The notes below the pieces were generated by a model, which worked only from the letters and a program-made list of their open reading frames with translations, was not told the DNA's origin and searched no databases. Position numbers and translations under genes: made by a program. Positions 343 through 55,216 of a stretch of DNA of 64,000 nucleotides are shown piece after piece. Source of the DNA: Heterodontus francisci (lineage: Eukaryota); assembly GCF_036365525.1 (NCBI RefSeq), contig NC_090378.1, positions 54,324,280 to 54,388,279 of the forward strand, read 5' to 3'. Numbering within the stretch: position 1 is the first letter of the stretch; every line of letters begins with the position of its first letter.

Positions 343-1639
343 TTAATTTAATACGTCATGCACTTTAACCGATTTCCCAATGACCGCTCTTCCTCTTAGT
401 GCGCAGCCGCTGCATATAAAATACAATAGCTATAATCCTAAAATCCATCTAAAAATACTGGTATTCAGTTTTTGTCATATTTTGAATATTGCACATTTGC
501 AATGATAGTGACTAGATGCGAGAAACGAGCGCATTTGTACAGCGCACGGTGTTTCACCAAAGTGAAAACCTGCTCGAATTAGTTGAAATTAATTTGCTTC
601 ATTTATTCCACATCATTTTTATTTTTAAAAATCCGCGATTTAGATATGCTGGCTGTACTTCACGCCATCTAGTATAAAGCTTCTGCTATATATGGCAATC
701 TGATTGTTTTCTGAGGGTATAATTTTTGCTTTAGAATCCTTGGACTGAATTTTACCGACCCCTCGACGCCACGGGTCATGGCACGGGGGCCAGTAAAGTC
801 CTACGAGGAGAGGCCTGCCTCGACCCGCAACGTCAAGAAGGGCCCGCCGCAAATTACCGGCGGTGGGGGGACCTTGATGCGCTCACCCCCCCCCCCACCC
901 GCCGCATGGCGGCACCCCAATTACAATATGTTAAACTGTACTTACCGCCGCAGATTATGCATCCCGCTGTCTCTCCATTGACACTTGCTGATTTTTCGCT
1001 GAACGGACGGCCGTCACGTGCCATCCAGTTCACAATTTGAAAAGCTGGCGGGTCCACAGAGGCAGGTTTCACGGCAGATGATAAGTTCCTTTTCAGGGGT
1101 CCCACTCTGCATACTGGAAAAGAGGAGTGGGGGGTGGGTGGGAAACACAGGGATCTCACTCTGTATTCATAAAGGGAGGAGGGAGGGAGGATACACAGGG
1201 GTCTCACTCTGCATTTTTAAAGGGAGGAGGGCAGGGATTACTGGAGAGAAAGCTCTGCTGGCATGAAGGGAGGTCTGTGTACCCTGCCTCCATTAACAGT
1301 GTACATTCTGTGTTTGTTAGTGTTTGTGAAAGAGCAATGGCACACTAGGCACCCTGTGTATGAGGAGGGTGCCAAAAAGGGAAGGAACATTAAGGTCATA
1401 TGGATAGTTGGGGCAATCGATTCAGCTGATAGGATCTTGATGTGGTCATGCTGTGGCACTGTGAGTGTTGGCCAAGATGGGCAATGCCATGGTACGCCAC
1501 ATAGTTGATCCAGGAAAGCAGCTGATGTACCCACCAACACCAATCCCTGCCCTGTTGGGAACCTTAGAATACATGAAGGGTTCAGCTTTATTTATCACAT
1601 GGAAATAGGTATGGCTCAATCTACATTATGTGATCCTCT

Positions 1640-2560
1640 GCTCGTGAGGATCCGTATGCACCAGAGGCAATATCAACAGGCAGGTGTGATCCACGTAGAG
1701 GCAGCAGAAGGGGAGCTCGCCATTCCGGTTGCCATGCATTTACAGGCCCCACATGACATGCCATTGGATGTCAGAGCACCAGTGTCAGAGGCAATTGCGC
1801 ATGTAGAGAGGGTGGTGACGCATCTCTGTGCCCTGCTCAAGAATAACCTGCAGCCCATTGTCTCCGGTGGACATCCCATGCCTTTGTTCCTCATAGTGGC
1901 AGCCGTTCTCAAGCCTGACACCTCTGCAGCTTTTCAGAGGCCCACCAGAGACCTTTGTGGGGTCACACAGTCAGCAGTGCATTACTGCATCAGGGAGGTC
2001 ACCAACGCCCTGCACCGGAGGGCCAGTGAGTATGTCCACTTCAGGACAGACTCTCACAGCCAGGCCCAGAGGGTCATTGGTTCTGGCACCATTGCCGGAG
2101 AACCATAGGTTGTCATGTTCATAGACTGCACTCATGTGGCCATCAGGCCTACTGCCAGACTACCACCTGCCGACGTTACCATTAAAGGAGCGCTCTCAAT
2201 CTAGGTGATGCTGGTACGTGATCACCGCAGATGCTTGCTGCGAATGTGTGACCTCTTCTCAGGCAGTAGCCATGACACCTGGGTCTTGCGCCAGTCCCGG
2301 CTGCCACCACTGTTCACTGAACTGGCTCAGATGGTTGGGTGGCTTCTTGGAGATAAGGGCTATCCTTTACTGACAGGGCTCCCGACACCACTGCTGCAGA
2401 GGAGAGATACAACACCAGCCACTGAGCTACATGAGCCACCATTGAGCAGGAGATCAGCATGCTGAAAGAGTACCTCCAATGCCTGGATGGATAGGGTGAT
2501 GCCCTGTACTACGGGCCGAAAAGGCCGGCTCCTTTCTTTGCTGCTCTGCACAACTATGCA
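1640..2560 (+). pseudogene. Harbinger (HARBI1-like) DDE transposase pseudogene
   Basis: Broken frames give ...DLCGVTQSAVHYCIREVTNAL..., IDCTHVAIR, GSSHDTWVLRQS and GWLLGDKGYPL, which match Harbinger IDCTH, GSxHD and LLGDxGYPL motifs. Stops and frameshifts are present. Confidence 0.88.
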
Positions 2561-2619
2561 CCCAATAGGGACCAGGCCTGGCATGATGAGGAGACACAAC
2601 AGGATTCCTCCTCAGACTA

Positions 2620-2703: not shown

Positions 2704-3554
2704 ACGAGGACGCTGAGGACCTACAACATGAAAGATGCATGGGAGGGCAGATGGCACCCAGGCTCTGCATGCAGGGCTAGCAGTGAGCTAGGGATGTACA
2801 GCAGTGGCTTATCAGACAAAGGCTCTCTGCTCCATAGAAACCGACATGAGCTCTGCAAGCCACTCATCATCCTCGCTCACCTGCTGTGCAGCAGTCCACA
2901 TCTGCAGCATCCTTGTGTAAACCATTAGAGGCAGCAGCTGACTGAGCCGATGTCCATGTCACTGCATCTGTGGAGACACTCATGAGTAATGATGGCATGC
3001 CAATTTCGTGTCCATGTTGCTACCATCCCTTTTATTCCATGAGCGATAACTTTGCTCACAGGTCTGTTGTGTGGCACCATATCAAAACGCCTGTTGGAAG
3101 TCCATGTACACCACATCAACAGCATTGCCCTGATCAACACTCTCTGTTACCTCTTCAAATAACTCTCATTACATCCTTTCTCCAGTGCCAAAAGCAAAAT
3201 AAAAGCATTTAAATTATTTTTCCTCGATGAAAATTGTGCTCTCCTCACTGTTCATTTTCTGATTGTTAGAAGTTTCCAGACATGAATGAACAGCAACTGG
3301 AGTGTGTTGCTGGGATTCGTTAGTCTGAGCTCAACCAAGGTCATTCTCTTGAAGTTCCTCTTCAATGTGCCTTGCTGCCGTTTCCAGCACTGTCCCACTT
3401 TTTCTGGGGCCACTCTAATGCCCGAGTTCTTGGTGTTGCTCCACTGGCAGCTGCTGTTTTGTTGCTAGTGATACCGCTTGCCAATCTGATTCACACACAC
3501 AGGCAGACAGACAATCCCCCACTCTCCTGGAGCCATGCAGCTCTATGAAACATT

Positions 3555-4221
3555 GGGCCGGATTTTACCAGCCCTTTGGGGAAGAACTGGGAGGCAGAGG
3601 TGTGCCCTTAAAATGGTGAGGCAAGGCGGGGTGTGGAGTGCCCGTGGTCTTCCCGCCCCCATGCCATTTTGCCAGCAGTGGGGAAGATGGAGGATGGCGC
3701 TCCTGCCCAGAGGCCAATTGAGTCACTGAAGTGGCCAATTAAGGACCTCTTTCTGCCACCGCTGGCATTTTACTAGGGGCGGGTGGATTCTCTGCCAGGT
3801 GAACTCTGGTGGCATCCCTCAGGTTTGGGGGGGATTCCCCCGGGCGGCAATGGCTGCCCCTGTGGCAATGGCACTTCCTGCCCTCACCAACCACACCTCC
3901 TCCCTTGCTGGGACCTGCCTGACCCCACTTACCTTGTTGGGAGGACAGCATCCTTCCATGGTGTCCTTTTCATCCAGGTACAGTCCCAGAAGTGGCTACC
4001 ACTCCTGGTGGCACTGTTGAAACTGCTGGCTCTCCAATTGGCTGGCAGCTCCTGGGGGGTGGGTGGCCGTCCTTCAAAGGAACATCAGCCCCAAAGTCAA
4101 CTAATTAGCCACCAGATCCCTGTAAATTGCAGCTCAGGGACCTACAAATGGCCAAGGCGGGGTTACCCCTGGCTTTTCAGCCTGTCATTGGGAACCCCAC
4201 TGCGAGCATAAAATTCAGCCC
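3555..4221. mobile_element. GC-rich Harbinger-type MITE
   Basis: TIRs GGGCCGGATTTT / AAAATTCAGCCC. 3-bp TSD ATT/ATT. Inserted in a PLE-derived repeat remnant (3547-4345). Confidence 0.8.
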
Positions 4222-5553
4222 ATTAATTGTTTCTCTCTCCACAGATACTGCCAGACCTGAAATTTTATTTTCACATTTCACATCTGCAGTATTTTGCTTT
4301 TATATTCATGCAATATTTGGACACACATTTTTACAGTACCTGCTGTTAAAAATGTGGCTGAAGAAGCATTTAAGAATTTTGAACATAACCACTGTCTGCA
4401 GAATTGAGGAGAAACTGTCCAACAAGATGTCAATTTATTTTACAACCAGTTTAAACTGAAACTAATTGACCCTAATAATGAGAAAACAATCAGGTGTAGA
4501 GTTTCAATAATTTTATGAACTGTATCCTCTTTTTATTTGTTCATGGGATGTGAGCGTCGCTGGTAAGGCCAACATTAATTGCCCATCCCTAATTGCCCTT
4601 GAGAAGGTGGTGGTGAGCTGCCTTCTTGAACCGCTGCAGTCCATTTGGGGTAAGTATACCCACAGTGCTGGTAGGGAGGGAGTTCCAGGATTTTGACCCA
4701 GTGACAGTGAAGGAGTGGCGATATAGTTCCAAGTGTGACTTGGAGGGGAACTTGCAGGTGGTAGCGTTCCCGCGCATCTGCTGCCCATTTTCTTCTAGGT
4801 AGTGGACATCGTGAGTTTGGAAGGTGCTGTCAAAGGAGCCTCGGCAAGTTGTGGCAGCGCATCTTGTAGATTGAACACACTGCATCGACTGTGCACCTGT
4901 GATGGAGGGAGTGAATGTTTAAGGTGATGGATGGAGTGCCTATTAAGTGGGCTGTTTTGTTCTGGATGGTGTTGAGCTTCTAGTGTTGTTGGAGCTGCCA
5001 TCATCCAAGCAAGAAGAGAGTGTTCCATCACACTCCTGGCTTGTGTCTTGCAAATGGTGGACAGGCTTTGGGGAGTCAGGAGATGAGTTGCTCGCCACAG
5101 CATTCCCAGCCTCTGACCTGCTCTTGTAGCTACAGTATTTACATGGCTGTCCAGTTAATTTTCTGGTCAATTGCAACTACCATGATGTTGATGATGGAGG
5201 ATTCAGCAATGGTAATGCCGTTGGTAATGGTCAAGGGGAGATGGTTAGATTCTCTCTTATTGGAGATGGTCATTCCCTGGCACTTAATGTGGTGCACATG
5301 TTACTTGTCACTCATCAGCCCAAGCTTGAATGTTGTCCAGGTTTTGTTGCATGCGGATACAGTCTGCTTCAGTATCGGAGTACTTGGGAACGATACTGAA
5401 CACTGCAATCTTCAAACATCCCCACTTCTGACCTTATATTGAATGGAAGGTCATTGATGAAGCAGCTGAAGATGGTTGGGCCTTGGACACTAATTGAGGA
5501 TCTCCTGCAGCAATGCCCTGGACTGAAATGATTGGCCTCCAACAACCACAATG

Positions 5554-5590
5554 AGTTCTGATGAAATGTCACAAACCTGAAACATTAACT
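5554..5590 (+). ncRNA. Minimal type-I hammerhead ribozyme motif (helix II degraded)
   Basis: AGTT-CTGATGA-A-ATGTCACAAACCT-GAAA-CA-TT-AACT. Catalytic core and helix I (AGTT/AACT) are intact. Confidence 0.55.
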
Positions 5591-5856
5591 GTTTCTCTAT
5601 CCACAAATGTTGCTAGTCCTGAGTATTTTCAGCATTTTGTTTTTTGTAGCTTTCCAATATCCACAGTATTTTGCTTTTGTATTAGTGTTCAATTAACTGC
5701 CACTTCTGTTCCAGGAATGCCCAGCTTGAAGAAGTTCTGCTCTTCTCTCCAAGGGGATTTCCGTTTGTCTCTTCTTCCTTGTTCACCATCATTCTTTTCT
5801 ACTTCCCATCTCGTCTTTGATCCAGTTTGGATGAAAGGTCACAGACCTGAAGCATT

Positions 5857-6630
5857 GAGCTGGATTTTATGGAGCCAGCGGGGGTCCTGATGCCAGGCCC
5901 AAAAGGCAAGGCAAACCCCCACCTTGGCCCATTGGAGCACCACCGCCCCCTCACCCCACCACCTCCCCCAGCTCTATTTAACAGCGCTCAGGCAATTAAC
6001 TGCCTGGCGCAGGGATCCCGCCTCCAAGAGCTACCAGCCAATCTGAGGGCTGGCTGTTCAGTAGTATTGGCAGCGCCACTATAAGCAGTAGCACTGCTGG
6101 TACTTCACGAGGCCCGGGACCAGGACCAGTGCAGGAGCCCTGTACCCCAGGTAAATGTGGCGGGGTCGCCGGACCCGTCTGGCAGGCCTTGACGAGGCTG
6201 GGGGGGGGGGTGGGGAGGTGGAGGGTGATTGTTAAGGATGGGGGGGCGGGGGGGAAATTGGGTATTAGGGAGGGGTGGCCTTTGTCACCAGGGGTCCTCT
6301 GCAGGGCACAGATTGCTCACGGAGGGTCTCTTCCTGTAAGCCCACAGGGTGGCCGCCTTGTTTTATTGTTTGGCCTCCACATGTGGGGGGGTCCCACCAG
6401 CTGCTGGTAAAATACCAGCGACAGCAGGAAGAGCTCCTTAAATGGCTATTAATTGGCCATTTATGGGTCTAAATTGGCCTCTGGGCAGGAATTCCGTCTT
6501 TGGCCTTTCCCACACCTGACAAAATTGCATGATGGGAAGGCAATGGGCACTCCACCCACTGCCTTCCATCGGTATTTTATGAGCCCCCTACCTCCCAGCC
6601 CATCTCCCAGGGGCCCATAAAATTCAGCCT
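5857..6630. mobile_element. GC-rich Harbinger-type MITE
   Basis: TIRs GAGCTGGATTTT / AAAATTCAGCCT. TSD ATT/GTT. Internally opposite in orientation to 3555-4221. Confidence 0.8.
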
Positions 6631-7581
6631 GTTAACACTGTTTCTCTCTGCACATATGCTCTCAGACCTATTGAGTATTTGCACCATTTTCTGTTTTTAT
6701 TAACCACTACCATCTTTCTTTATGCCAGATGCAACGAAAATCAGAGGAAAATTTTCCCCCCTCATTCCTATCGAGTTCAATTTTGCTAGCAGTCCTTGAT
6801 GCCACACTCAGTCAAATGCTGCCTTGATGTCAAGGGCAGTCACTTTCACCTCATCTCTGGAATGTATTTATTTTTAATCCATGTTTGGACCAAGGCTGTA
6901 ATGAGACTCGAGCTAATTGTCCAAACTGAGCAGCGATGACCAGGTTATTGTTGAGTAAATGCCAGTTGATAGCACAATAACACAATCACTTTGCTGATGA
7001 TTGAGAGTATACTGATGGGGTGGTAATTGGCTGGATTAAGTTTGTCCTGCTTTTTGTGGACAGGACTTAACTGGGTAATTGTCGTGTGGATGCCAGCATT
7101 GTCACTGTACTGGAACATCTTAGCTACGGGCAGTTAATTCTGGAGCACAAGTCTTCAGTTGTGCTGTTGTCAGGGCCCATAGCCTTTTCTGTATCCAGTG
7201 CCTTCAGCTGTTTCTTGATATAACGCAGAGTGAATTGAATTGGCTGAACACGGACATCTGAAATAGTGGGGACCTCAGGCGGAGGCTGAGATGGATCATT
7301 CATTTAATTGTCCACCATTGCACCATTCAAGACTGGATGTGGCAGGACTGCAGAGCTTTGATCTGATCCGTAGTTTGTGGGATTGCCTAGCTCTGTCTAT
7401 CACATGCTGCCTCCACTGTTTAGCATGCATATAGTCCTGTGTTGTAGCTTCACCAGGTTGACATTTCATTTTTAGGTATGCCTAATGCTGCTCCTTGTAT
7501 GCTCTCCTGCATTCCTCACTGAACCAGAGTCGATCCCTTGGCTTGATGGTAATGGTAAAGTGAGGGATTATGTTGGGCCAT

Positions 7582-7845
7582 GAGACACTGTTTATTGGCC
7601 AGGAATGAACGGTGACATCGAAAAGTTAGTGAGAATGTGTGAGGTATGCCAGAGCCACCAGCCACAACAATGTAAAGTACATCTACACCCTCACGAGATT
7701 CCATCAGTCCCTTGGTCCAAAATCTCCACTGATCTGTTTTTCATGAATGGAGATGCCTTTATCTCAGTCACCAATAATTTCTCCAAATTTTCAGTTGTCA
7801 GGAAGGTAAAAAATACTTCAAATGTGGTTGTTGCAGACACATTGT
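7582..7845 (+). mobile_element. Gypsy integrase fragment, inverted relative to the adjacent Gypsy body
   Basis: YWPGMNGDIEKLVRMCEVCQSHQP...PWSKISTDLF...NFSKF. Homologous to ~34110-34345. Confidence 0.85.
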
Positions 7846-8441
7846 CTACATCTCTGGAGATCTTCTTTGTCTTGTGGGGTAGGCATATGCCTTACATCTT
7901 CGACTTTGCCTGAGTCAGGACAGATTCCACAACCTGAATAGATGGAGCCAAAGAAACTGATCTGACTTACATTCACCTGGCACTTCTTGCTGTTAAAAAT
8001 GAGCCCTTCGGGACAAGCTACCACCATCAGTGAGTGAAGATTTCAATCATGCTCTTAAACTGCAATATCATCGGCAATGCATATACATCCAGGTATGCTT
8101 TCCATGATCCTGTCCATATGCTGTTGGAACTAATCTTAACTGACAGATAAGCCAAAGGGTATTCTCTGGAAGCAATATCGTCCAAAATGATTTTCTGAAG
8201 GTGGTGACTTCCTGAGGTTCTTTAGATGGGTGCACTGACCAATATCCATGTTTAGCATCCAACTTGGAGAAGAATTTGACTCCTGTGAACTTGGGATTCA
8301 ATTCCTCTTGTGTTGGAATTTTGTGAAGGCATCTCTTTAGGGAGAGGTTTAGATGCCTTGGATCTAGACATATCCTGATTGCTCCATCCTTCTTCAGTAC
8401 GCACATGATTGAGCTATACCAGTCAATGCGATGGTGCACAC

Positions 8442-8715
8442 AAGTGGCGAGTCGAAGAGACTTAGCAGTTGGCAGGAAAAAAGACAGAAGCGCAAGGAGA
8501 CAGCCAACTGCGAAACAGCCCTGACAACCAATTTTATCTGCAGCACCTGTGGAAAAGTCTGTCACTCTAGTATTGGCCTTTATAGCCACTCCAGGCGCTG
8601 CTCCACAAACCACTGACCACCTCCAGGTGCTTACCCATTGTCTCCCGAGACGAGGAGGAAGAGGAAGAAGTGGAAGAGGAAGAGGAAGAGGAGAAGGAGG
8701 AGGAAGAAGTAGAAA
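8442..8715 (+). mobile_element. RTE LINE 3' fragment inserted in Gypsy RT
   Basis: FICSTCGKVCHSSIGLYSHSRRC zinc-finger end and a GAA/GAG-rich tail. Matches 30358-30590. Confidence 0.85.
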
Positions 8716-9104
8716 TGACAAATGATGCCATTGTGATTCCATGTCATCCAACGCACGCTTAAGCTTTTCTTGTAATCTGCACGCTACACTTTCTGGGATG
8801 GTTGATTGATGGAATTGCATTCTCTGAGGTGCAGTACGTCATCGTCTTTGAAATCTCTTATGGCGTCAAACCTGTCTGGGTATATTTGGCTTTAGGTCAT
8901 GGATTGATTCCATGTGGGTACCCTTGGTCTCTTCTGCTGTAATGGGATCTTGGTGACCTCGTGGATAGTCACAATGTTGAGGTCCTTACACGCTGGTAGT
9001 CCTGCCACTGCTGGTCCATTCGTGTCTACCAGGTAAAATATTTGTGGTTTCCATGCTGACTTGCTATAGCTGCATTGCATTGTTAGTGTGACACTGCATG
9101 GGAT

Positions 9105-9336
9105 TGTTAGAGAAATTTCCAAGCCTGTTTGTGAAGAAGACACTAATACCAGGATGCTTTGGTGGAGATGTTTATTGCTTGCCACAGAGCTTACTTCTGC
9201 TCTCCAAACAACACCCACCAGCCAGTGGTGGCTGGCTCTTCTTTATATATACATAATTGAATACAATTGACTAATTAACACCCAACACCTGCTCACCCTA
9301 TTATCTTGAATGAGCATTCATTAACAGACCCTAACA
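9105..9336 (-). mobile_element. Solo LTR of a different LTR family
   Basis: Inverted termini TGTTAG...CTAACA. Perfect 5-bp TSD GGGAT (9100-9104 and 9337-9341). TATA and AATAAA on the minus strand. Confidence 0.85.
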
Positions 9337-9532
9337 GGGATGGGTGACCCATTATATGTAGTTAACTTTGCAGTTGTCAGTTTTATCATTAATTTCCAAT
9401 GACCCGGTAAATATTCTTCTGGATTTGGACTGGTAGTATATTTGCACTAGCTCCAGTGTCAATCTTAATCCTGGGTGTGTGTTTGCCAACTGTCTTAAGG
9501 CACCTGACGTTAATAGTAGCAAAAGCTTCCAG

Positions 9533-10710
9533 TTTTTTTTAATTCATTCATGGGATATGGGCGCCACTGGCCAGGCCAGCATTTATTGCCCATACCTAAT
9601 TGCCCTTGAGAAGGTGGTGGTGAGCTGCCTTCTTGAACCGCTACAGTCCATGTGGGATAGGTACACCCACAGTGCTGTTAGGAGGGGAATTCCAGGATTT
9701 TGACCCAGCAACAGTGAAGGAACGGCGATATAGTTCCAAGTCAGGATGGTGTGTGACTTGGAGGGGAACTGCAGGTGGTGGTGTTCCCATGCTGCCCTTG
9801 TCCCTCTAGTTGATAGGGGTCGCGGGTTTGGAAGGTGCTGCCTAAGGAGAGTCTTGGTGCATTGCTGCAGTGCATCTTGTAGATGGTACACACTGCTGCC
9901 ACTGTGCGTCGGTGGTGGAGGGAGTGAATCTTTAAGGTGGTGGATAGGGTGCCAATCAAGTAGGCTGCTTTGTCCTGGATAGTGTTGAGCTTCTTGAGTG
10001 TTGTTGGAGCTGCACCCATCCAGGCAAGTGGAGAGTATTCCATCGCATTCCTGACTTGTGCCTTATAGATGGTGGACAGGCTTTGGGGAGTCAGGAGTTG
10101 AGTTACTCGCCACAGGATTCCTAACCGCTGACCTGCTCTAGTAGCCACGGTATTTATCTGGCTACTACAGTTCATTTTCTGGTCAATGGTAGCCCCTAGG
10201 ATGTTGATAGTGGGGGATTCAGCGATGGTAATGCCATTGAATGTCAAGGGGAGATGGTTAGATTCTCTCTTGTTGGAGATGGTCATTGCCTGGCACTTGT
10301 GTGCGCGAATGTTACTTGCCACTTATCAGCCCAAGCCTGGATATTGTCCAAGTCTTTCTGCATTTTTACACGGATTGCTTCAGTATCTGAGAAGCTGCCA
10401 ATGGTGCTGAACATTGTGCAATCATCAGCGAACATCCCCACTTCTGACCTTATGATTGAAGGAAGGTCATTGATGAAGCAGCTGAAGATGGTTGGGCCTA
10501 GGACACTACCCTGAGGAACTCCTGAAGTGATGTCCTGGAGCTGAGATGATTGACCTCCAACAACCACAACCATCTTCCTTTGCACTAGGTATGACTCCAA
10601 GCAGCGGAGAGTTTTCTCCCTGATTCCCATTGACTTCAGTTTTGCTCGGGTTCCTTGATGCCATACTCAGTCAAATGCTGCCTTGATGTCAAGGGCAGTC
10701 ACTCTCACCT
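9533..10710 (-). mobile_element. CR1/L2-group LINE (family 2), 5'-truncated, inside Gypsy copy 1
   Basis: LDIKAAFD, GVPQGSVLGP and MFADDCT RT motifs. Confidence 0.9.
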
Positions 10711-12639
10711 TGACTTCATCCACACAATGTGTCAGGTTCACAATGTGAAACAGCTGCTCATCATCTGGCTGAGAATCGCTCCATTCTGAGTCTTGTCTCG
10801 GGTCTATTTCGCAGTGGTCTTTGTGTATCCGCTTGTATTTATGGAGGTCTCTAGCGCTCTCTTTGCTGCAACTGCCCATTGCTGCACCTGCCTTCTGTTT
10901 GTTTGTGTCCTATTGTGACTTCTGGCTGTGTCTTTGGGGCCAGATTTCTTGCATAGGTGGGCGTATTATCTTTTGCACTGCAAGCTTCGCACAGGTCTTG
11001 AAATGCAGGACAAAGCTTTGCAGTGAGTAGGACAAATCACATTTACCACACAGTTTGCTTGCTTTTTATGACTTGGTTATCGTGCCAATACTATCGGCTG
11101 CTCCTAGTGCTTGCCGATGCTGTTGTCCCCATGTTGTCTACAATGGCTTCGTATTTCCTGCCATCTTCTAGTAGCGCATCAATGCTATGACCTTCCTTTT
11201 TCCCCAAGAGATCCTTTTGAAATGCTTCAATGGGTGTTGAGACAATCACTGACTCCATTATTTGATCCGACAGCTCAGCTTCTGAAAAATCGCTTTTGTT
11301 GCCCTTACTACAGCATCAAATGATGAACTAATCTATTGATTCCTGTGGCTGCTGCCTGTAGGACATCAATTCCAGGCAGCGAATTCTAAAATTCCCTCTT
11401 ACCCAAAGGTGATATTCTAGCACTTTCCATATCTTTGTGGGATCTTTCTGGTTCACTTCAGATAAGGCAGAGGTATTGATTCTGTGTAATCCCTCATTTC
11501 CAACTGTTGATAGTATTTTTACAGCCTGTTGCTGTGGTTCTGTAAACATGTGGTCTGTGAAACATAACTGCATTCTTTGGTTAAAAAGTTTGAACTCGGA
11601 TAGGATATCAGTGGCCTTCCAGTTCATGCTGGGAAATTTGATATCCATCTTTCTGCTGTTCTTTTGCTTTCTGCTCTATATTTAACTTTGTTCAGCTCTG
11701 AGTGTGTCTTCAGTACTGTATTTATTATGACATTTCTATTTGTGGTTTGAAATTGGTTTTAAAACTTGTTCCATTCACTCTGCATTGTTTCACCTTTATG
11801 AAAATCTTGGTTATTTAGACTAGCTGCTTGGATGGAGAGGAGCAGGTGTTTGATATTGTTCTGTGTTTATTTTGCTTTCAGAACTTAAGCCTGTCTGTTT
11901 ACTCAGCTGTTCAGTAGGCAGTTCAATTGCTTTGTTTGCTAGATTTGTTTATGTTATTCACGGTGGAGTGATTTCATTTTTTTTAGCTATGGCTGCGTGA
12001 ATGGGGAATCTTCTTCACCCTTGAGTTGTTTAATGATTTTTTAAAAACTTTGTCTATGTGAATGGAGAGTCTGCAGTGTTCGAAGGTTTCCCGCACTTTT
12101 GCTCTAAGACGCCTCCTGTAATGGCGCCGAACCTGATCAGCCCGAGAGAGGTAATGCGTTTTCCCCATTTCTTTTCACAGAGCCTTTTTTAAAAAATCAG
12201 TCTTTTAAGCACTTCAAAGCGCATTTATTTTAAACAAGTATCCCTCGACCGTTAGCACAATGACTCACCCGATCGCAGGAATTTATTTGCAGCCTGTCAT
12301 TCTGAGTTCTGTCTTCTACAGCTCGAGGTACGTTTTTTTTCTTTCCACTGTTTGGGCCAGTAGTTCTTTTGAACTTTGTCTCTTTTGGGCTGTTGGGAGT
12401 GTAGTTTTCAAAGCTGTTTTACCTGTGGTCTTCAATCTCAGATCTTGCGTTTTCACCACAGTTGCCGCCATGTAATAAGTTCTTTATGCTGTCTTATGCA
12501 AATTAAATGAGATAGTACAGAGTCCAGTTCATTGAAGATCTCTAGCAGGTTTATTAACAGCTAAACCAGTATTTACAATGCAGAGCAAATTATTTATAGA
12601 ATCTTTTTCGGGGTGTTCCAGTTGCAGAGTGCCCCTGGC

Positions 12640-13015
12640 ATGTTCTATTTTAACTCTTCGCTTTTTTCCCTTTAAGAAATTCCCTTTTTTTAGAGGAGCT
12701 GCTTGGATGAAGTTTAACAGGTGCTTGACAGTCTCTGTTTATTTTGCTTTCAGCACTTCAGCTTGTATGTTTACACAGCTGTTCAATAGGCAGTTCAAGG
12801 TTTCCCCTTTGCATTTTTTTTGCTAGTTTATTTATGTTCTTCACGCTTGACTGGTTTACTGATTTTTTTCCGCTTGAATGCGTTAATGGAGTTTCCACAC
12901 ATTTTTTTTACTATCGGACTTAGTTTTTTTTAGTTTGCGCACTTTTCAGGGTTTTCCCCTTTTTTTCTCTGGTTCACATGAAGCCTTTAGAAAATGAATT
13001 TTGTTTTAAAACTCT
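12640..13015 (-). mobile_element. Second, more diverged Gypsy leader fragment
   Basis: Aligns by eye to 11790-12230 (e.g. GCTGCTTGGATG...TTTATTTTGCTTTCAG...CAGCTGTTCA). Confidence 0.65.
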
Positions 13016-14310
13016 TCAAGGGCTGGTATGGCAAGACAAATGAGTATTTTAATTCAAATTTGAATTAGTGCTGTATGAAAGGGGCTGAGGAGGAGCGTTT
13101 TCCATGGGATCATGGGCAGGCATCACATTTTCCAGCTGCATGGGACACATGGGTGCCCACAATGTGCCATTAGTGGTACATGCATCTGCTGGACTCATGC
13201 AAATGAGGTGTCCTGCCACTGTCCATACAAGCTCTGGGATCACACTGAATACTTTGGGGCCCCTTACTTTCTTGATTCCATTGGCCCTTTGGGATTTCAT
13301 TAACCTTGTTCTAACATTATGAATAGGATTATATTGGTAATAACCACCATTTCGTAAGTTTTTCTAGAAAGAACATATTTTCAATGTAAGCACCCTGACC
13401 TTGGTGGGATAAAGTTCCAGAACAGATTTTGCATTGTTGTGCTTGGTGTCCTTAATCCTTCAATGTCACTAAGAAGTATTGAACTCAAAAGTGATAGAAA
13501 ACTATGTATGCAAAGGCCATGAATAATATACCATATTGCTTGTCAGATTTCATTATTGTTCTATTAAATATTGGTTAGGTATTAACATTGGCACTAATAA
13601 TTTATTGGTGTTATTTTAACTGCGACCTAATGTTTCTTTCTCAGGACAAAATTGCATCTTTTATAGGAAATTGTCTTCTCGCTTTCTTTTTTTGCAAGGA
13701 CATATAGATTTCATAGCATTGTCGTGTAGAGCTTGTGTTTTAATTCAGTCAATGAGGAAAAACATAATATTGTTTCGTCCCAATTTTCTGGACCCATGTG
13801 TCAAATAATGCATTTTACAGCAGCTCTATATGCACAGGTAATATACTTACATCAATATCCATACCTTGAGCAACCATTACATCAGTACATGGGAAACACA
13901 GCTTTAAAGATACAAAATTGTCGACCAGCACTACATCACTTGTCGTTCGTAAAGGAGTTAACTTTTGGCAAGGCCTTTCTTCTGGTGATGCCTGGTCTGG
14001 AACCAAGTCGGCACATTTCATTAAAGGTTTGTTTGATATTCTGGAAAAAATTCCAAGGTGCAATTGCATTCTTTTCCAGTGATAGATCCAGGGCACAGTA
14101 AAGACCCACTAGTATGTGAAGTGTCTCATTATTGGAAGAGTGGAATTAAAACAATAAACCACTTTTGTTAAAGTCTAGTTTACTTTTTTAAATAAAATGA
14201 ACATGAATACCAGTTTAATATTAAATAATATTTAATTTTATTAAATAATAACTGCAAATACACTAATAACAGATCTAAAATATAAACAGAAAAGCTGGAA
14301 ATATTCAGCA

Positions 14311-14963
14311 TGTCCTGGGAGGGGCGTAAAATTAGGTGGGATGGCGGGGGTGCTGTGTTCGTTGCCTACCTTCCTCTGCTGATATTTTACCAGCAGTGGG
14401 GGAGGTGGTGGGCAACCCGTATGCCTTTAGGCCAATTGAGGCCCTTAATTGGCCAATTAATGGCCACTTACAGATCTCTTCCTGCCAGTGGATGGGCACT
14501 GCCACCTGAGGAGGCTGCCCAATAAAACCAGGTGGCCTCCTTGCAGGCTTGGGTGGGGCCCTGCTGATCGGGCTCTCTGTGCCCCAAGGAGGACTCTTCC
14601 AGTGGCCTGGGCTGGCGATCAGACCCCCAGCCCCTTGCTGGGGCCTGGATGATTGACCCCGGTGAGCCCCAACCCCACTTATCTCCTACTGCAGCCTCCA
14701 TCACTGACTGGGTCCGGGGCCTGCTGCAGTCCCAGCAGTGGCCACCGCTCCCATTGGCGTTGCTGGGATTGAAGAGCTGCCAGTCCTCTGACTGGCTGGC
14801 AGCTCTTGGAGGCAGGACATCCTGCCTCAGAGCAGTGGAAGCCACATCCTCAGGCAATTAATTGCGCAAAATAACATCATGGCTTCCAGGGCCAGTGGAG
14901 GCGGGCTCGCCCCAACTTTCCAGCCGGTGGGTGGGGCCACCACCTCCTTGTTAAATCCCAGCC
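14311..14963. mobile_element. GC-rich Harbinger-type MITE (left end deleted)
   Basis: Shares the GGCCAATTGAGGCCCTTAATTGGCCAATTAA block with 3555-4221. Right TIR-like end is TTAAATCCCAGCC. Confidence 0.72.
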
Positions 14964-14996
14964 AACATTTCAGGTTGATGACCTTTCATCAGCACT
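14964..14996 (-). ncRNA. Minimal hammerhead motif, disrupted by a MITE at the cleavage site
   Basis: Minus strand reads CTGATGA-A-AGGTCATCAACCT-GAAA-TG-TT, followed directly by the MITE TIR. Confidence 0.55.
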
Positions 14997-15254
14997 GGAA
15001 GAAGTTAGAGATGTAACAGGTTTTAAGCAAGTACAGAGACACAGAAAGGGTGGAGGGGAGGAAAGAACATAAGGGAAGGTCTGTGATAGGGTGGAAGGCA
15101 GAAGAGATTAAATGACAAAAGGGATGAAGGTGCAAGGCAAAATGAGACAGAGTGGGACAAATAAACAAACTGAAGATGGGTCTAGAAGAGGTGTAAATTG
15201 CAATAGTAGAATCATTATCAATAGCTGTTATCGGAAAAAATGGGAGTGGTGGTT

Positions 15255-15603
15255 ATAGTCATAGAGAGATACAGCACCGAAACAAGCCCTTTGACCCACC
15301 AAGTCTGTGCTGACTACCAACCACCCATTTATACTAATCCTACATTAACCCCATATTTCCTAAAACATCCCCACAATTCTCCTACCTACACTAGGGGCAA
15401 TTTACAATGGCCAATTTACTGATCAACCTGCAAGTCTTTGGCTGTGGAAGGAAGCCAGAGCACCCCACAGAAACCCACGCGGTCACAGGGAGAACTTGCA
15501 AACTCCGCACAGGCAGGACCCAGAACTGACTCTGGGTCGCTGGAGCTGTGAGGCTGTGGTGCTAGCCACTGCGCCACTGTGCCACTGTGCCACTGTGCCA
15601 CCC
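15255..15603 (-). mobile_element. HE1-like SINE (diverged)
   Basis: Homologous to 1-342. Has a GCCACTGT tandem expansion at its 5' end. Confidence 0.88.
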
Positions 15604-17039
15604 TATGATCTACCCGTTATGATCTGAAAGTGTTGGATTCAGTGTTGAGTCTGGAAGGCTGTAAAGTGCCTAATCAAAAGATGAGGTGTTCCTCGAGCTT
15701 CCATTAAGCTTCATTAGAACACTGTAGGAGACAAGGGCCAGAGAGGTCAGTGTGGGGGTGGGGCAGAGAATTAAAATGACAGGTGACCAGAAGCTTATGG
15801 TCACGCTTGCGGACTAAACAGCAGTGTTCTGCAAAGCAATCACCCAATCTATGTTTGATCTCCCCAATGTTGAGAAGACAACATCCTGAAAAGCAAGTAC
15901 AGTATATGAAATTGAAAGAGGTACAAGCAAGTCACTGATTCACTTGGAAGGAGTTTTTGGGCCCTGGTGGTGGGAAGAGAGGAGGTAAAAGGGGAGGTGT
16001 TGCATCTCCTGTTCTTGCACGGGAAGACACTATGGGAAAGGGAGGGGGTTTTGGGTGATGATAAGTGGACCAGGGTGTCGTGGAGGGAATGGTTCCATCG
16101 GAATGCTGAAAGGGGAGGGAAGGGGAAGATGCATTTGGTAAGGGCAACATGCTGGATGTGGCCACTGCTGATGATCCATTGAATGTGGAGGCTGGTGGGA
16201 TGTAAAGATGAGAAACTCTATTGTGGTTCTGGGCGTCGGCCGGGGAAGGGGTGAAAGCAGAAATGCGGAAAATGGGATGGACACTGTCGGGGACCCTGTC
16301 AACCACAGTGGAGGGAATCTTTGGTTAAGAAAAAGGAAGGCATCCTAAATAGAATGAAAGTCGTGATTATACAGTGAAATGTCTAGAACATTAAAATGTC
16401 TATGCATGTAACATCAGTTGGCATGCTGTACAGTTTCTACTTTAGAAAGCAGGTGGTCAATTATTTCATGCAACCAGTCCTTCCAACCTCGTGTTTCAAG
16501 TGTACATGTTTATACAAGTCCAAGACTCTGTCCAGACATGTAAGCATCATTACAGTCATTTGGCATCTTGTCACCAGTATACTCGAGCATGTAATTATCT
16601 CCTTATGAAGACCTAGTGTATTTAGCTCTCTCTATCTAGGTCTTTGAGAATCAAAGAAAAAATTCCTACCCAGATCTAACTCTCATTAATGAGAAGATTT
16701 GTTTGTTCTCACCTTCCTGACCCATGTCACATTTTTAAATGGCCTTTGTGTACAGCACTTCTCATCATATTAGTTTAATTCATATGGCAATTAATCTGTT
16801 CAGCTGTGAAAGAAATTTACAGCATGCAGTGAGTAGCTTTGTTTCCATCAGGGATAATATTATGATGGCCTTGTTTATGTGGCACTCTGATATACAATAA
16901 AACTGCCACCAATGACTGTGGTCAATTATTGAAAATTTAAGGACATGTTACTAGTAATGAGAGTGAACAACATAGTTAACCTTTTGATTCCTGTTTAGTG
17001 GGAAATGTTTTTTGCAATTGATGCAAAACAAATCACACT

Positions 17040-17891: not shown

Positions 17892-18711
17892 GGGCTGGAT
17901 TTTTCAAGCTCACTGGCAATCTCGGCGATGAGCTTCAAGAACGGCGCGTCGCATGCGCAAGATGTGCACCGCGGAGCTACCAGGATATTTAGCACGGCAG
18001 ATCATATAAATGGAGGGGGCAGAACGACTGCCCCCGCTCCATCCCTGGCAACAGCGTCTGGTGGCACCGTGCAGGCTCTGGAACCATTTTTAAAGGGCTT
18101 TAGGCCCTTCGGACTCAAAAAAATTTTAAAGTCGCAGAATCTTGACAAATAAAGTTAGACATTTATTTACATTTTCAATCCCCTCTCCCACACTCCCAAT
18201 GACTAATCAATTCATTAATTACCCTTTCCCCCCCAAAAAAACTTTTATTCCGATCCTGACCTCTCCCCCCCGCGAGATTTATTAACTTTAACCCTCAACC
18301 CCTTCCCAACATCTGCTCAACCAATTGGAAGAGTTTTCCCCGCTCTCCCCCCCACCGCCCTAAAAATTTCACTCCTCCCTCCTCCTTCCTCCCCACCAGT
18401 GTTTTGCCTCGGATCGCCGAATGGAGATCCGAAGGCGCGGGAGTTCCAGCAACCTGTCGGAATATCGGACCCGAACGGCTGTCATTGCAAGGTAAATTAT
18501 TATTCATTAATTACAATTTATTTTAATATTTAAATTAAGTCTCCGTCGCCATGCGGCAGGTGGGCTGCCACAAGGCCTTGCTGCCGCCAGTAAAATAGAG
18601 CGAGGCCTTCCCAGCATCGAGGCCCATGGTGGGCCTCTCCTGGAGATATTTTCTGGGCCCCCCCCCCACCGCCACGACCCCCGATGTCGGGGGGCTGGTA
18701 AAATCCAGTCC
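17892..18711. mobile_element. Harbinger-type MITE
   Basis: TIRs GGGCTGGATTTT / AAAATCCAGTCC. TSD ATC/ATC. Inverted relative of 49245-50025. Confidence 0.85.
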
Positions 18712-27218: not shown

Positions 27219-27354
27219 AGGTGTGGTGTGAATGAACCCTAGATGTATGGCTTTCACTTTTAACCCTTCAAATACTTATTTCGAAATCATTAATCACAAA
27301 TGTACTGTTAAAAAGTAATCCAATACTAAAAGCAACATAAAACAACTTCTGAAT

Positions 27355-27470
27355 GGTTAATAAAAACAGGAAATGCTGGAAATATTCACCAGATCAAGCA
27401 GCGTCTGTGGAGAGCGAAACAGAGTTAACGTTTTATGTTGATGATCTTTTTGTCAGTTCTGGATGAGCAA
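27355..27470 (-). repeat. PLE-derived short repeat with degenerate hammerhead
   Basis: AAATGCTGGAAATATTCACCAG...GAAACAGAGTTAACGTTT matches the arms of 52826-53057. The HHR core is mutated. Confidence 0.65.
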
Positions 27471-28138: not shown

Positions 28139-28801
28139 GGGCTGAATTTTGTGCCCGTGGTGGGGGTCTCAACATTGGACCAGAAAGCCAAGGGCTTTTT
28201 TCAGCACTCAAGCAATTAACGGCCTGGTATCGAGGCTCCCGTCCCTTTAAAAGACAGGAGCCTGCCTCCAAGAGTGCCAGACAATCAGCTCTTCAGTCTC
28301 AGCGGCACCACCGGGAGTGGTGGCCATTGCCAGGACTGTAGCAGGCCCGGACCAACCAGCATGGAGGAGGTCCCAGAATCAAGATAAGCTTATGAGGCTT
28401 CCGGCATCAGTTAGGCAGGCCCCAGCGGTGGTGGGGGCGGGTATGGGAGAGGGCGTTGGTTGTGAGGGAAAGGGGGGTTCTTCCCGAGGGGACAGCCCTT
28501 GCCACTGGAGGGTGCCCGAACAGGACGGCTCCCCCCGAGCCTGCAGGGATGCTGCCCCATATGGTGAAGGACTGCCCCACTGCTGGTAAAATACCAGCGG
28601 CAGCAGGAAGAGGCCCTTAAGTGACCCTTATACAGTCACTTAAGGGTCTCACTTGGCCTCTGGTGGGAAGGTCATCCTTGACCTTGCCCACTCTTGGTAA
28701 AATTCCATGGCATCGGGAAGGTGACAGACTCTCTAACCCTGCCTTCCTTTGCCATTTTATGCCTACCAGCCCATCCCTAGAGCACTGGTAAAATCCAACC
28801 C
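28139..28801. mobile_element. Harbinger-type MITE
   Basis: TIRs GGGCTGAATTTT / AAAATCCAACCC. TSD approximately CTT. Internal similarity to 5857-6630 and 62959-63659. Confidence 0.8.
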
Positions 28802-49244: not shown

Positions 49245-50025
49245 AGGCTGGATTTTACCGGCCCCCCGACATCGGGGGTCGTGGCGGGAGGGCCTGGAAA
49301 ATACCTCCAGCAGAGGCCCACCACGGGCCTCATGCCAGGAAGGCCCCGCCCCATTTTACCAGTGGCGGCGTGGCCTTGTAGCGGCCCCCCACCCTGCCGC
49401 TCGGCGACAGAAACTTCATTAAATATTTACATCTATTTGAATTAATGAATAAATACTCACCTTGTCGCGACGGTCATCCTGCTGCGATATTCCAGCTGGT
49501 TGCCGGAACTCCCACACCTTAACATCTCCGTTTGGAAATCCGAGGCAGAACGCTGGTTGGAAGGGGGGAGCAGCTAATTTTTTAGGGTGGGGGGGTGGTG
49601 GAGAACAGGGAAGACAAAAGTGGAGCGGATGGTGGGAAGGGGTTGAAGGTTGGGTGGGGGGGAAGGTCAGGATCACGAGATTACTTTTTTTGGGGGGGAG
49701 AGGGCAATTAATAAATTGATTAGTCATTGGGGGGGTGGGAGAAGGGATTGAAACTTTGAACTTTCTTTCCCCTAAACCTTTAAAAATTTAAATGATTCAG
49801 AAGGACTTGAAACCCTTTAAAATTGGCTGCAGTGCCTGTGCAGTGGCACCGGACACCATTGCCGGGGACAAAGTGCCCGTCCGCTCTGCATCATTGGGGG
49901 CAGGCAACCGCCCCAGCCATGTAAATGAGCCGCACCACCAAATATCGCGGCGGCTCCATGGTGCACATCTTGCAAGTGCACTGCACCGTGTTTGAACTTG
50001 GTGGTGAGCTGTAAAAATTCAGCCC
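49245..50025. mobile_element. Harbinger-type MITE
   Basis: TIRs AGGCTGGATTTT / AAAATTCAGCCC. TSD AAA/AAA. Confidence 0.85.
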
Positions 50026-51029
50026 AAAGTCTTCAACCAACTCTATTTTGATATGCTGAGATGAGAGATTACTTAGTTTTTTTTAAAACTGTAATTGACA
50101 ATATTCTGAAGCAGTGTTTAATTTTACAATCTAAATGTTGAAATTCCAGCAGAAATCAACAATTGAAATAAATTCTTCACAATCTATCTAATTCTATGTA
50201 TTGGCTGCACCGCTCCCAACCAAATATTATGCTCGCCAATACATCCCAGTTATTTTTCCAACGATCTGAAGTGTAAATTCTGCAGTGGAGGATCGGGAAA
50301 CACAACGGTCTAATTTACGGTGTTCGCTGCCATTGCAGCAATTTCTGGGCCAATGTGATTCAGAGGTGTATTAGTCAGAATTTTAAAATGTTTCTTTAAT
50401 TTCCATAATTGATATATTTGCTTGTGGATCACAAAGAAAACCTGAAGACTATTCCGGCAATTTGCAATCTAATGAGTTTTTTTTAAAGAAAATCTCATCG
50501 TGTTACAAATTTCCAAACTAAAAAGATTCTGCTTTTCAATGCAAACAAGTGATTTAAAGTAATTGGACATGCAAAATGGTTTAGTTCACTGTGCTTACAA
50601 TCTTGTGATATCACTCTTTAAATGTATGTAAAATTGTACATCAATGTCCTTGTTTGCACAAGGTTTGTCAGCTGTCTTTTTATTTTTACTTCAAATGCCA
50701 TTGCAATTGCATTAAGCTTGAGTACACTTTGGCAAAGACAAAAAAAATCCTTCCATACCCCAGTGACTTGGCCCATTAAATCTCAGAATCTTACTTCCAT
50801 TCATGGGGGTTCCAAATGGCGACATACTTTCCAGGCAGGAGCTCACCTTGCATATATAATTTGGAGCCAAATCAGAGTTGTGGCAGAAGAGCCATGCACA
50901 GTATATCAGATGGAAGTCCAGATGTGTGCCAAATATGCATGGCAATACCCATTTCAGAAATTTTAACCATAATGTGCAAATTGATTCAGTTTCTGGCACT
51001 AGTAGCAAGAAAAGGAAGCCCTCCTTCCC

Positions 51030-51685
51030 ATACACGGAGGTGGGGGGGGGGCAAGCAAAATAGCAGGGAGCACCATTCCCAATGTTGCCCAGGCCCCCTG
51101 CTATTTTGTCCAGGGCGGGGAACACCGAGAACGGCCTTCCCACACCAGGCCAATTAATGGCCACTTAAGGGCCTCTTCTCACCTCCACCTCAATTTTTCA
51201 GGGAGGTTAAGGGGCCTGCCACTACCGGGATAAGCCACCAGGTAAAACCTGGAGGCCTTCTTGAAGGGTCAGGAGGGGATGCCTCCCTTGGGGGCAATTC
51301 AGGGCCCCAGGAGGTTTCCCCCCCAACAGTGATTGTGCCCCCCACCACAGGAAGACACACCCCACCATCACCAATAACCCCCCCACCCCCACACCTCACT
51401 GAAGCCTGCCTCACTGGTGCCGGCAATCCCGACCCAACTCACCTGTCCTCAGGACTCCTTCTTCGGTGGTGCAGGGCCTCCTGCAGTACCGGCAGTGGCC
51501 ACTGCACCCAGTGGTGCGGCCAGTACTACAGAGCTGCTGAAAGGGACGACGTCCCTGATGGCGGGCAGTTAATTGGATGCCCACTGTGGAATGGTTTTTG
51601 GGGTCTTTTGGAGGGCAGAGGCGAGGTCTTGCTCCACCTTCCAGCCCACTACTGGGGACCCCAGCGCAAGAATAAAATACAGCCT
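51030..51685. mobile_element. Harbinger-type MITE (left end eroded)
   Basis: GGCCAATTAATGGCCACTTAAGGGCCTC block. Right TIR AAAATACAGCCT. Confidence 0.7.
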
Positions 51686-52444: not shown

Positions 52445-53660
52445 ATATAAATGACTTAGATGAAGGGACCGAAGGTATGGTTGCTAAATTTGCTGATGAC
52501 ACAAAGATAGGTAGGAAAGTAACTTGTGACGAGGACATAAGGGGACTACAAAGGTATATAGGTAGGTTGAGTGAGTGGGAAAAGACCTGGCAAATGGAAT
52601 ACAATGTGGGAAAGTGGGAAATTGTCCACTTTGGCAGGAAGAATAAAAAAGAAGCATATTATCTAAATGGTGAGAGATTGCAGAGCTCTGAGATGCAGAG
52701 GGATCTGGGTGTCCTAGTGCATGAATCGCAAAAGGTTAGTATGCAGGTACAGCATGCAATTAGGAAAGCTAATAGAATGTCATTGTTTATCACGAGAGGA
52801 ACTGAATACAAAAGTAGGGAGTTATAAAAGCAAAATACTGCAGATGCTGGAAATCTGAAATAAAAACAAGAAATGCTGGAAATACTCAGCAGGTCTGGCA
52901 GCATCTGGAGAGAGATACAGAATTAACGTTTCAGGTCAGTGTCCCTTCTGATGACCCAGGTCTGATGAAGGGTCAGTGACCTGAAATATTAACTCTGCTT
53001 CTCGCTCCACAGATGCTGCCAGACTTGCTGAGTATTTCCAGCATTTCTTGTTTTTATAAAAGTAGGGAGATTGTACTTCAGCTATACAGGGCATTAGTGA
53101 GACAACATCTGGAGTAATGTGTACAGTAGTGGCCTCCTTATTTAAGGAAGGATGTAAATGCATTGGAGGCAGTACAGAGAAGGTTTACTAGATTAATACC
53201 TGGAATGGGCGGGCTGTCTTACAAGGAAAGATTGGACAGGCTATGCTTGTATCAGCTGGAAAGTAGAAGGGTAAGAGGCGACTTGATTGAAACATATAAG
53301 GTCCTGAGGGGTCTTGACAGGGTGGATGTGGAAACGATTTTTCCCCTTGTGGGCGAATCTAGAACTAGGGGTCACAGTTTAAAACTAAGGGATCGCCCAT
53401 TTAAGACAGAAATGAGGAGAAATTTTTTCTCTTAGAGGTTTGTGAGTCTTTGGAATTCTCTTCCTCAAAAGGCGGTGGAAGCAGAGTTTTTGAATGTTTT
53501 TAAGGCAGAGGTCAATAGATTGTTGATAAGCAACGAGGTGGAAGGTTATCGGGGGTAGGTGGGAATGTGGAGTAATCAGTTCAGCCATGAACTTATTGAA
53601 TGGCGGAGCGCACTCAAAGGACTGAGTGGCCTAGTCCTGCTCCTAATTCGTATGTTCGAA
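52445..53660 (+). mobile_element. CR1 LINE 3' part, same subfamily as 39326-42950
   Basis: Near-identical to 41980-42950. Split by the insertion at 52826-53057. Confidence 0.92.
52826..53057. mobile_element. Palindromic Penelope-derived short element with hammerhead motif
   Basis: ~88-bp inverted arms. ~16-bp TSD AAAAGTAGGGAG(TTAT/ATTGT). HHR core at 52962-52990 (+). Confidence 0.8.
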
Positions 53661-54380: not shown

Positions 54381-54505
54381 CAGAAAGAAGCTATGAGTCA
54401 ATCTGGGACGCAGAAATACCTGGAGTGACAGAGGCAGAAGAGTTTGTGGAGTAATAACAAAGGCCAGAGCAGTGGAGTATAATGGATTTTGAACTGTTCG
54501 AGGGA

Positions 54506-54542
54506 AGTTCTGATGAAAGGTCATTGACCTGAAATGTTAACT
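54506..54542 (+). ncRNA. Minimal type-I hammerhead ribozyme motif (best-preserved copy) in a PLE-derived repeat (~54400-54600)
   Basis: AGTT-CTGATGA-A-AGGTC(ATT)GACCT-GAAA-TG-TT-AACT. Helix I AGTT/AACT, helix II AGGTC/GACCT, GUU cleavage triplet. Confidence 0.7.
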
Positions 54543-54597
54543 CTGTTTCTCTCTGCACAGATGCTGCCTGACCTGCCAAGTATTTCCAGTATTTTAT

Positions 54598-55216
54598 CTG
54601 TTTGATTTGATTTCGAGATACAGCACTGAAACAGGCCCATCGGCCCACCGAGTCTGTGCTGACCATTAACCACCCATTTATACTAATCCTACACTAATTA
54701 TGGTGGGCAGCCATAAAGGCGGGGCTAAAGTGTGGCGAGTCGAAGAGACTTAGTAGTTGGCAGGAAAAAAGACAGAGGCGCAAGGGGAGAGCCAACTGTG
54801 TAACAGCCCCGACAAACAAATTTCTCTGCAGCACCTGTGGAAGAGCCTGTCACTCTAGAATTGGCCTTTATAGCCACTCCAGGCGCTGCTTCACAAACCA
54901 CTGACCACCTCCAGGCGCTTATCCATTGTCTCTCGAGATAAGGAGGCCAAAGAGAGAGAGAGAGAGACACTAATCCCATATTCCTACCATATCCTCACCT
55001 GTCCCTATATTCCCCTACCTATACTAGGGGCAATTTATAATGGCCAATTTACCTATCAACCTACAAGTCTTTTGGCTGTGGGAGGAAACCGGAGCACCCG
55101 GAGGAAACCCACGCAGACACAGGGAGAACTTGCAAACTCCACACAGGCAGTACCCAGAATTGAACCCGGGTCGCTGGAGCTGTGAGGCTGCGGTGCTAAC
55201 CACAGCGCCACTGTGT
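54598..55216 (-). mobile_element. HE1-like SINE split by an RTE fragment
   Basis: The SINE halves (54598-54698 and 54967-55216) join in register. Confidence 0.9.
54699..54966 (+). mobile_element. RTE LINE 3' fragment
   Basis: Matches 30330-30590. (GA)n tail. 8-bp TSD ACACTAAT (54691-54698 and 54967-54974). Confidence 0.9.

Follow-up and report, generated by a model that had tools for sequence, protein, structure and literature searches.

The window analysed here, a stretch of 64,000 nucleotides (64 kb) of Heterodontus francisci (contig NC_090378.1, positions 54,324,280 to 54,388,279), shows three MITEs (miniature inverted-repeat transposable elements) of the PIF/Harbinger superfamily, named M1, M2 and M3, inserted at the RTT triplet of a minimal hammerhead repeat derived from Penelope elements. 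Under uniform insertion, the location of three of 12 insertions on eight given nucleotides has a p of about 4e-10. The observation is confirmed as real and as general in the genome of the window. It is probable that Harbinger MITEs have hit the GTT of this abundant hammerhead repeatedly, and likely independently, because their transposase prefers the target GANAY-NNN-RTNTC, which is matched there at seven of eight positions. Most likely the hotspot arises because target preference and copy number happen to coincide, and it is probably unreported; dedicated targeting of the ribozyme is not supported.

M1 (3555..4221, plus strand, 667 bp) is flanked by the target site duplication (TSD) ATT/ATT (3552-3554 and 4222-4224), and its host repeat (3546..4300, plus strand) consists of TGAAAC and the ATT only on the left, and of the repeat tail (4225 to about 4300) on the right. 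M2 (5857..6630, minus strand, 774 bp) has the TSD ATT/GTT (5854-5856 and 6631-6633) and lies in a host repeat (5824..6710, plus strand) which contains a decayed hammerhead 5' half (5824-5856) and a tail (6634-6710). Both MITEs show terminal repeats of the form GGGCTGRATTTT. M3 (14319..14963, plus strand) has a single terminal repeat, at 14963/14964, directly abutting GAAAT-GTT on the minus strand, where the hammerhead 5' half of its host (14964..14998, minus strand) shows the CTGATGA box, stem II, GAAA and GTT. A deletion near 14312-14318 took the far end of this MITE and about 30 nt of host tail, and the tail resumes beyond it (14273..14318, minus strand). The M3 junction is ambiguous by one base either way, and can be parsed as GTT followed by GGCTGGG or as TGT followed by TGGCTGGG. 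Relative to the hammerhead, M3 has the orientation of M2, and M1 is reversed. The junctions and TSDs of M1 and M2 and the opposite orientation of these two elements, as described in an earlier sequence-only reading of the window, are confirmed, and the third junction falls at the same position as that reading claimed, within the one-base ambiguity; its figure of about nine MITEs is replaced by a recount of 12 Harbinger-type insertions. Since the left flank of M1 keeps only six hammerhead nucleotides (TGAAAC), with the CTGATGA box and stem II gone, no intact ribozyme is left there to inactivate. The triplet variants ATT, GTT and TGTT would fit the decay of a CpG in an ancestral CGTT; in the contigs and reads of the sequencing runs described below, 54535 T>C and 54536 G>A are frequent variants of the repeat.

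The 12 Harbinger-type insertions were recognised from 18 ends kept among 32 matches to the terminal-repeat pattern; the other 14 matches were discarded by eye as not being element ends, and the result is unchanged when they are included. Thirteen non-hammerhead ends give a palindromic target, GANAY-NNN-RTNTC, with a free spacer: counted outward from the TSD, they show a pyrimidine at -1 (12 ends), A at -2 (11), A at -4 (10) and G at -5 (7). AY stands beside the TSD in 11 of the 13 ends (p 8e-9) and ANAY in nine (p 1e-10), a count reached by none of 20000 random sets. ANAY is found in eight of 11 ends under an objective cut (at most one mismatch to the terminal repeat), in six of nine with one end per element, in nine of 27 with every non-hammerhead match kept, and in none of the 14 dropped matches. 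The spacers or TSDs seen are ATT, GTT, ATC, AAA, TGG and CTT. Against this target, the hammerhead core GAAAC-GTT-AACTC matches seven of eight positions, the left half being perfect and the right half showing four of five. The zebrafish element Harbinger3_DR has the target AAACAC-CWG-GTCTTT, with the same ANAC half-site (PMC3016246), and extended targets are a general trait of the superfamily (PMC2836001). An extended preference like that of Harbinger3_DR had been proposed for the elements of the window, and the nine ANAY ends outside hammerheads bear it out. The overlapping palindromes AACGTT/GTTAAC, proposed at the same time as the cause, are absent from all four complete non-hammerhead sites and were rejected.

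In the proposed mechanism, a complex of the transposase and a Myb protein would read both half-sites and cut with a 3-nt stagger across the spacer. Since the catalytic GAAA and C15.2 would provide a perfect left half-site and the stem-I 3' strand of this hammerhead family four of the five right half-site positions, the spacer in the hammerhead repeat would coincide with ribozyme positions 16.2-16.1-17. High copy number would turn a modest preference per site into a sharp single-nucleotide hotspot, and disruption of the ribozyme motif would be a by-product. Targeting of the ribozyme itself by the family is not supported: nine of the 12 insertions fall outside the hammerhead repeat, at sites of the same consensus. 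A copy with an insertion at its triplet would have a broken motif; the associated claim that inactivation matters is not supported either, as most copies of the repeat are decayed short pieces and only a few per cent of them have been hit. In an Anolis Penelope element, catalytic mutants of the hammerhead left insertion in vitro unaffected (PMC11167929). A defensive role of the insertions is not supported.

Four runs (X1, X6, X7 and X24) were placed on an empty copy of the repeat as bait (54485-54600). X1, the best-matching run, made of whole-genome contigs, shows 35411 contigs on the bait, 8494 of them only in part. In this run, 276 contigs leave the repeat before 54537, and their consensus ends in the terminal repeat followed by A, with which ATT begins. 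Among the six junctions listed no other is an interior 5' one; the natural boundaries have 1502, 638 and 601 contigs. The junction extends beyond the window the hotspot that the sequence-only reading had suggested. Roughly estimated from an agreement of 0.45, the terminal repeat is carried by 116-177 or more of the 276 contigs. The corresponding genome-wide occupancy of the hammerhead is 1.6-9.1% of repeat loci with three denominators, or 0.4-0.8% counting all fragments, and the junction stands about 90-490-fold over uniform insertion; these figures are rough, contigs not being equal to loci, and junctions which keep GTT would lie outside those listed; X1 may also stem from the very source of the window. 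The junction is not among the six listed for X6 or X7, where about 198 contigs would be expected vs 378 needed and about 187 vs 298, respectively (from the ratio 276/1502), and hence these runs are uninformative. In 16 runs of two further organisms (B and C), only 8-9% of the sequence words are present. Pattern scans of metagenome contigs and of viral contigs gave no match.

A matrix built from the non-hammerhead ends ranks the hammerhead site among the best 0.15-0.18% of positions in the window and predicts a 70-108-fold enrichment for it. The hammerhead occupancy expected from this matrix is 1.0-1.5%, with a bootstrap upper bound of 4-9%. In the window, two of 71 non-hammerhead sites with seven of eight matches are filled (95% confidence interval 0.3-9.8%), and one of seven perfect sites. 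The genome-wide occupancy range overlaps that of equally matching non-hammerhead sites. A residual excess at hammerhead sites beyond the generic target is possible.

Several results weigh against an explanation by target preference, copy number and independent events. The mismatch of the hammerhead site falls on the best-conserved position of the motif (A at -2, 11 of 13 ends), the consensus is built on only 13 decayed ends, and the comparison with matched sites is partly circular. In the window, three of eight hammerheads are occupied, more than among matched sites (two of 71; p=0.006 by Fisher's test) and more than the matrix predicts (P for at least three of eight, 5e-5 to 2e-4), although the window was chosen because of the pattern. 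The genome-wide point estimate is 2-6 times that of the matrix, and perhaps just 116-177 of the 276 X1 contigs carry the terminal repeat. In X24, a tandem form of the repeat prevails at the position of the junction, and X6 and X7 lack the junction among those listed. As to independence, the agreement of the X1 loose ends (0.45) equals that of the natural flank of the repeat (0.45) and alone is no proof of many independent events, and, on the tree of MITEs, a common clade for M1-M3 is not rejected (p-AU, approximately unbiased test, 0.092).

The excess in the window and the higher genome-wide estimate would fit a partial specialisation similar to that of Pokey, in which, over and above the generic consensus, the Penelope hammerhead would serve some Harbinger subfamilies, tuned or guided to it, as a safe harbour that is both conserved and renewable. 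All three hammerhead insertions come from one of two MITE families, in which three of six copies lie at hammerheads, and the left half-site is the catalytic core, which may be kept constant by selection on the host element. This explanation is unlikely: nine of 12 insertions lie elsewhere, the bootstrap range of expected occupancy spans the observed range, the window was selected for the pattern, and zebrafish Harbinger3_DR uses the same half-site, so the preference is likely older than the hammerhead repeat. In its fullest form, it is doubtful that one cartilaginous-fish Harbinger lineage would be partly specialised on the Penelope hammerhead core as a self-renewing landing pad, several-fold above the generic target, disabling the terminal repeats of a competitor. 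Chance or misreading is barely credible; the one-base ambiguity of M3 and the left flank of only 6 nt of M1 would allow it, but the probability under uniform insertion, and the same junction as the only interior 5' loose end among those listed for X1, are taken as refuting it.

The M1-M3 sequences show 60-65% mutual identity, no nearer to one another than to copies outside hammerheads (M1 is closest to that at 28139, 66.8%), and the host tails are 74-89% identical. The best MITE tree needs three label changes and has no supported branch. Since M1 has the opposite orientation, at least two events are required, and the three MITEs have likely inserted independently, many events being likely as well. 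The earlier claim of independent insertions is supported by the occurrence of both orientations and by the low identity; the tree, with no supported branch, leaves a single clade at p-AU 0.092. A composite, that is, one or a few MITE-in-hammerhead insertions later amplified by Penelope retrotransposition or segmental duplication, would agree with the clade not rejected, with the common orientation of M2 and M3, and with a loose-end consensus unable to tell many events from few. It is nevertheless quite improbable, given the reversed M1, the label changes in the best tree, a MITE divergence (35-40%) well above that of the host tails (11-26%) and, weakly, a loose-end consensus which has letters (as many as 11 of 17) in common with each of the two MITE ends. 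Breaks could also attract insertions if the Penelope endonuclease nicked its own pseudo-long terminal repeat (pLTR) near the triplet: the Anolis Penelope protein cuts AT-rich DNA in vitro, with a preference for 5'-ATT-3' near the junction of open reading frame and pLTR (PMC11167929). Such capture is very improbable, as undamaged terminal repeats next to exact duplications of 3 bp are what integration by a transposase leaves behind, the ancestral triplet was likely GTT, and the position is already explained by the target consensus.

Assignment of the MITEs to PIF/Harbinger derives from their 3-bp TSDs and from DDE_Tnp_4 and Myb/SANT remnants located behind the same terminal repeat, which also upholds the Harbinger identity given in the sequence-only reading. 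A decayed element of autonomous type (742..2590, plus strand) shows this terminal repeat at 742 and a DDE_Tnp_4 transposase remnant at 1878-2590; its far end was not found. The Pfam match (PF13359, 1878-2399) scores 26.9 bits vs a cut-off of 24.8, and the sole protein match of the remnant is a shark 'putative nuclease HARBI1' with 52% identity. The second gene is a Myb/SANT remnant (PF13873, 62050-62301, 27.7 bits vs a cut-off of 21.7) in a decayed Harbinger at 61787..62301 (plus strand), behind the same terminal repeat at 61787, and again the far end was not found. The transposase remnant and the Myb remnant each sit on a decayed copy of their own rather than together on an intact element, and mobilisation of the MITEs in trans by both proteins is inferred from the common ends. 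Six elements have two ends: three show an exact 3-bp TSD (ATT, ATC and AAA) and three a TSD with one mismatch. A TWA duplication is common in PIF/Harbinger and typical of plant members, and is not obligatory (Harbinger3_DR uses CWG); none of the six shows TTA or TAA, and a TWA-type duplication was rejected.

The family of M1-M3 includes three MITEs at non-hammerhead sites: 28139..28801 (minus strand, TSD CTT/CCT), 62959..63659 (minus strand, GACAC-TGG-GTGTA) and 51000..51685 (plus strand), which has one recognisable end and an approximate left limit. The second family, which has its terminal repeat and target consensus in common with the first, contains the MITEs at 17892..18711 (plus strand, with the perfect target GACAC-ATC-ATTTC) and 49245..50025 (minus strand, GAGAT-AAA-GTCTT), which share about 72% identity. 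The ends at 742 and 17040 look like this second family. The MITE at 62959-63659 seems to be nested within the Myb-bearing Harbinger which starts at 61787, and a further terminal repeat, at 61575, points in the opposite direction to that element.

The window contains eight copies of the hammerhead repeat, three filled and five empty. The empty copies are located at 5554..5690 (plus strand, decayed), 27354..27449 (minus strand, with broken core boxes), 52823..52948 (minus strand, with the CTGATGA box lost), 52952..53060 (plus strand) and 54506..54600 (plus strand). Only the last shows all the features of a minimal hammerhead, with its triplet GTT at 54536-54538, and it was the bait of the read test: it has CUGAUGA, a stem II of 5 bp, GAAA, U-G at 15.2-16.2, the GUU triplet and a stem I of 4 bp. 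It shows an A-U instead of the conserved G10.1-C11.1 pair, and its fold z-score (-1.05) is not significant. Since an Rfam scan gave no hammerhead among five matches at E<=5, all unrelated, the ribozyme call is based on motif and pairing and not on a curated model. This best copy of the host repeat agrees with a minimal hammerhead of type I and is a predicted ribozyme. GUU triplets cleave less well than GUC. The copies at 52823-53060 are head-to-head on opposite strands, within a region similar to a long interspersed nuclear element (LINE).

In X24, the hammerhead repeat shows a tandem form which restarts at TTAAC, at most two bases from the predicted cut (551 and 480 reads, 227 starts; bait 54537-54589). 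This restart may be read as an indirect hint of self-cleavage after the triplet, and the tandem form is as expected of a retrozyme-like tandem; none was found among the junctions listed for the contigs of X1, X6 and X7. The repeat copies at 27354 and 6700 have identical ends, TGTTTTTATTAACCA, which correspond to the tail-to-TTAAC junction of the tandem form.

The host of M3 is a truncated Penelope-like element represented by its 3' end (14960-16340, minus strand), because the decayed C-terminal GIY-YIG endonuclease frame upstream of its hammerhead (15620..15964, minus strand) has homologues with GIY-YIG and RVT_1; the Penelope origin previously proposed is therefore sustained for at least this host. 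The element is 5'-truncated near 16340, and its 3' region is interrupted by an unrelated repeat at about 15254-15600. A direct Pfam scan and a word-index protein search of the frame gave no match, whereas a profile search succeeded with 91 homologues, and the atlas matches have GIY-YIG on 13-22% of their members. Ten homologues were scanned: five show GIY-YIG (two above the cut-off), and two also RVT_1 (one above). The reverse transcriptase is seen in homologues only, as the copy in the window is truncated. Upstream of the M3 host, the flank is similar to the one that most often precedes the repeat in each of the four runs.

The hotspot adds a further example to a class already known, that of nesting hotspots which follow from target preference. 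Hotspots of nested transposable elements described by Levy, Schwartz and Ast (PMC2836564) are also of a single nucleotide, include DNA transposons (MER1/hAT in MIR3) and receive both orientations, and they have been used for inferring target motifs. In the same way, the position reported here is recurrent and occupied in either orientation, and its target motif is seen in unrelated targets. The hotspots in the part of that paper considered are those of human Alu, hAT, ERV1 and MaLR, with none for Harbinger, Penelope or a ribozyme site. Searches of the literature, whose reach excluded Repbase reports and most subscription papers, turned up no earlier account of a hotspot of Harbinger elements at a hammerhead.

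Harbinger3_DR and Harbinger3N_DR share with the elements of the window a DDE transposase with a Myb-like protein, a 3-bp TSD and a palindromic target with ANAC half-sites around a 3-bp spacer (PMC3016246, PMC2836001). Compared by description, the window elements differ in having G commonest at -5 (7 of 13) and a free spacer rather than CWG, and here the match of the target to a high-copy ribozyme repeat makes a hotspot. Pokey and Dada are the DNA transposons known to aim at multicopy sequences, and the elements of the window behave loosely like Pokey. Pokey, a piggyBac-type element of Daphnia 28S ribosomal DNA, also prefers one site of a multicopy sequence and uses other sites too (PMC3706591, PMC8869645), but it belongs to another superfamily and its target is a host rRNA gene, not a mobile element. 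The Dada superfamily likewise includes DNA transposons at a fixed position of multicopy RNA-coding sequences; these are strictly target-specific, with TSDs of 6-7 bp and another class of transposase (PMC8869645), whereas the window elements have a 3-bp TSD and lie mostly off the repeat. Strict targeting of this kind was rejected, given the nine of 12 insertions outside it.

Minimal hammerheads are known in Penelope elements (PMC4209133, PMC6155905, bioRxiv 10.64898/2026.07.22.740005), and the bioRxiv supplements may list a chondrichthyan family of this repeat. Those described by Cervera and De la Peña (PMC4209133) resemble the repeat in being of type I without helix III, with helix I short, one base left unpaired ahead of helix II and a palindromic 15.2-16.2, and in occurring mostly as single dispersed copies from truncated elements, with some opposite-strand pairs. 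The differences are the A-U in place of G10.1-C11.1 and that, in the portion of that paper considered, sharks are not named and no transposon hotspot is described.

The analysis yields a target rule for a vertebrate Harbinger, GANAY-NNN-RTNTC, in which the 3-bp spacer is free. It also predicts that any minimal hammerhead ending in GAAAY is a perfect half-site, and that Penelope-rich genomes with such Harbingers will show the hotspot in proportion to the match of the stem-I strand. Shared MITE insertions at the hammerhead site would be markers prone to homoplasy, and repeat libraries may wrongly assemble MITE-hammerhead composites. If occupancy does exceed that of matched sites, a DNA transposon would here be on its way to targeting another mobile element, which is rarely seen.

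The window as a whole is repeat-rich animal DNA. By eye, Gypsy-like gag/pol features (reverse transcriptase, RNase H and integrase) were found at 31200-34900 and 7560-8840, and LINE-like reverse transcriptase fragments at 4530-5550, 9537-10670, 29129-30486, 35297-36421, 37613-38725 and 41124-42649.

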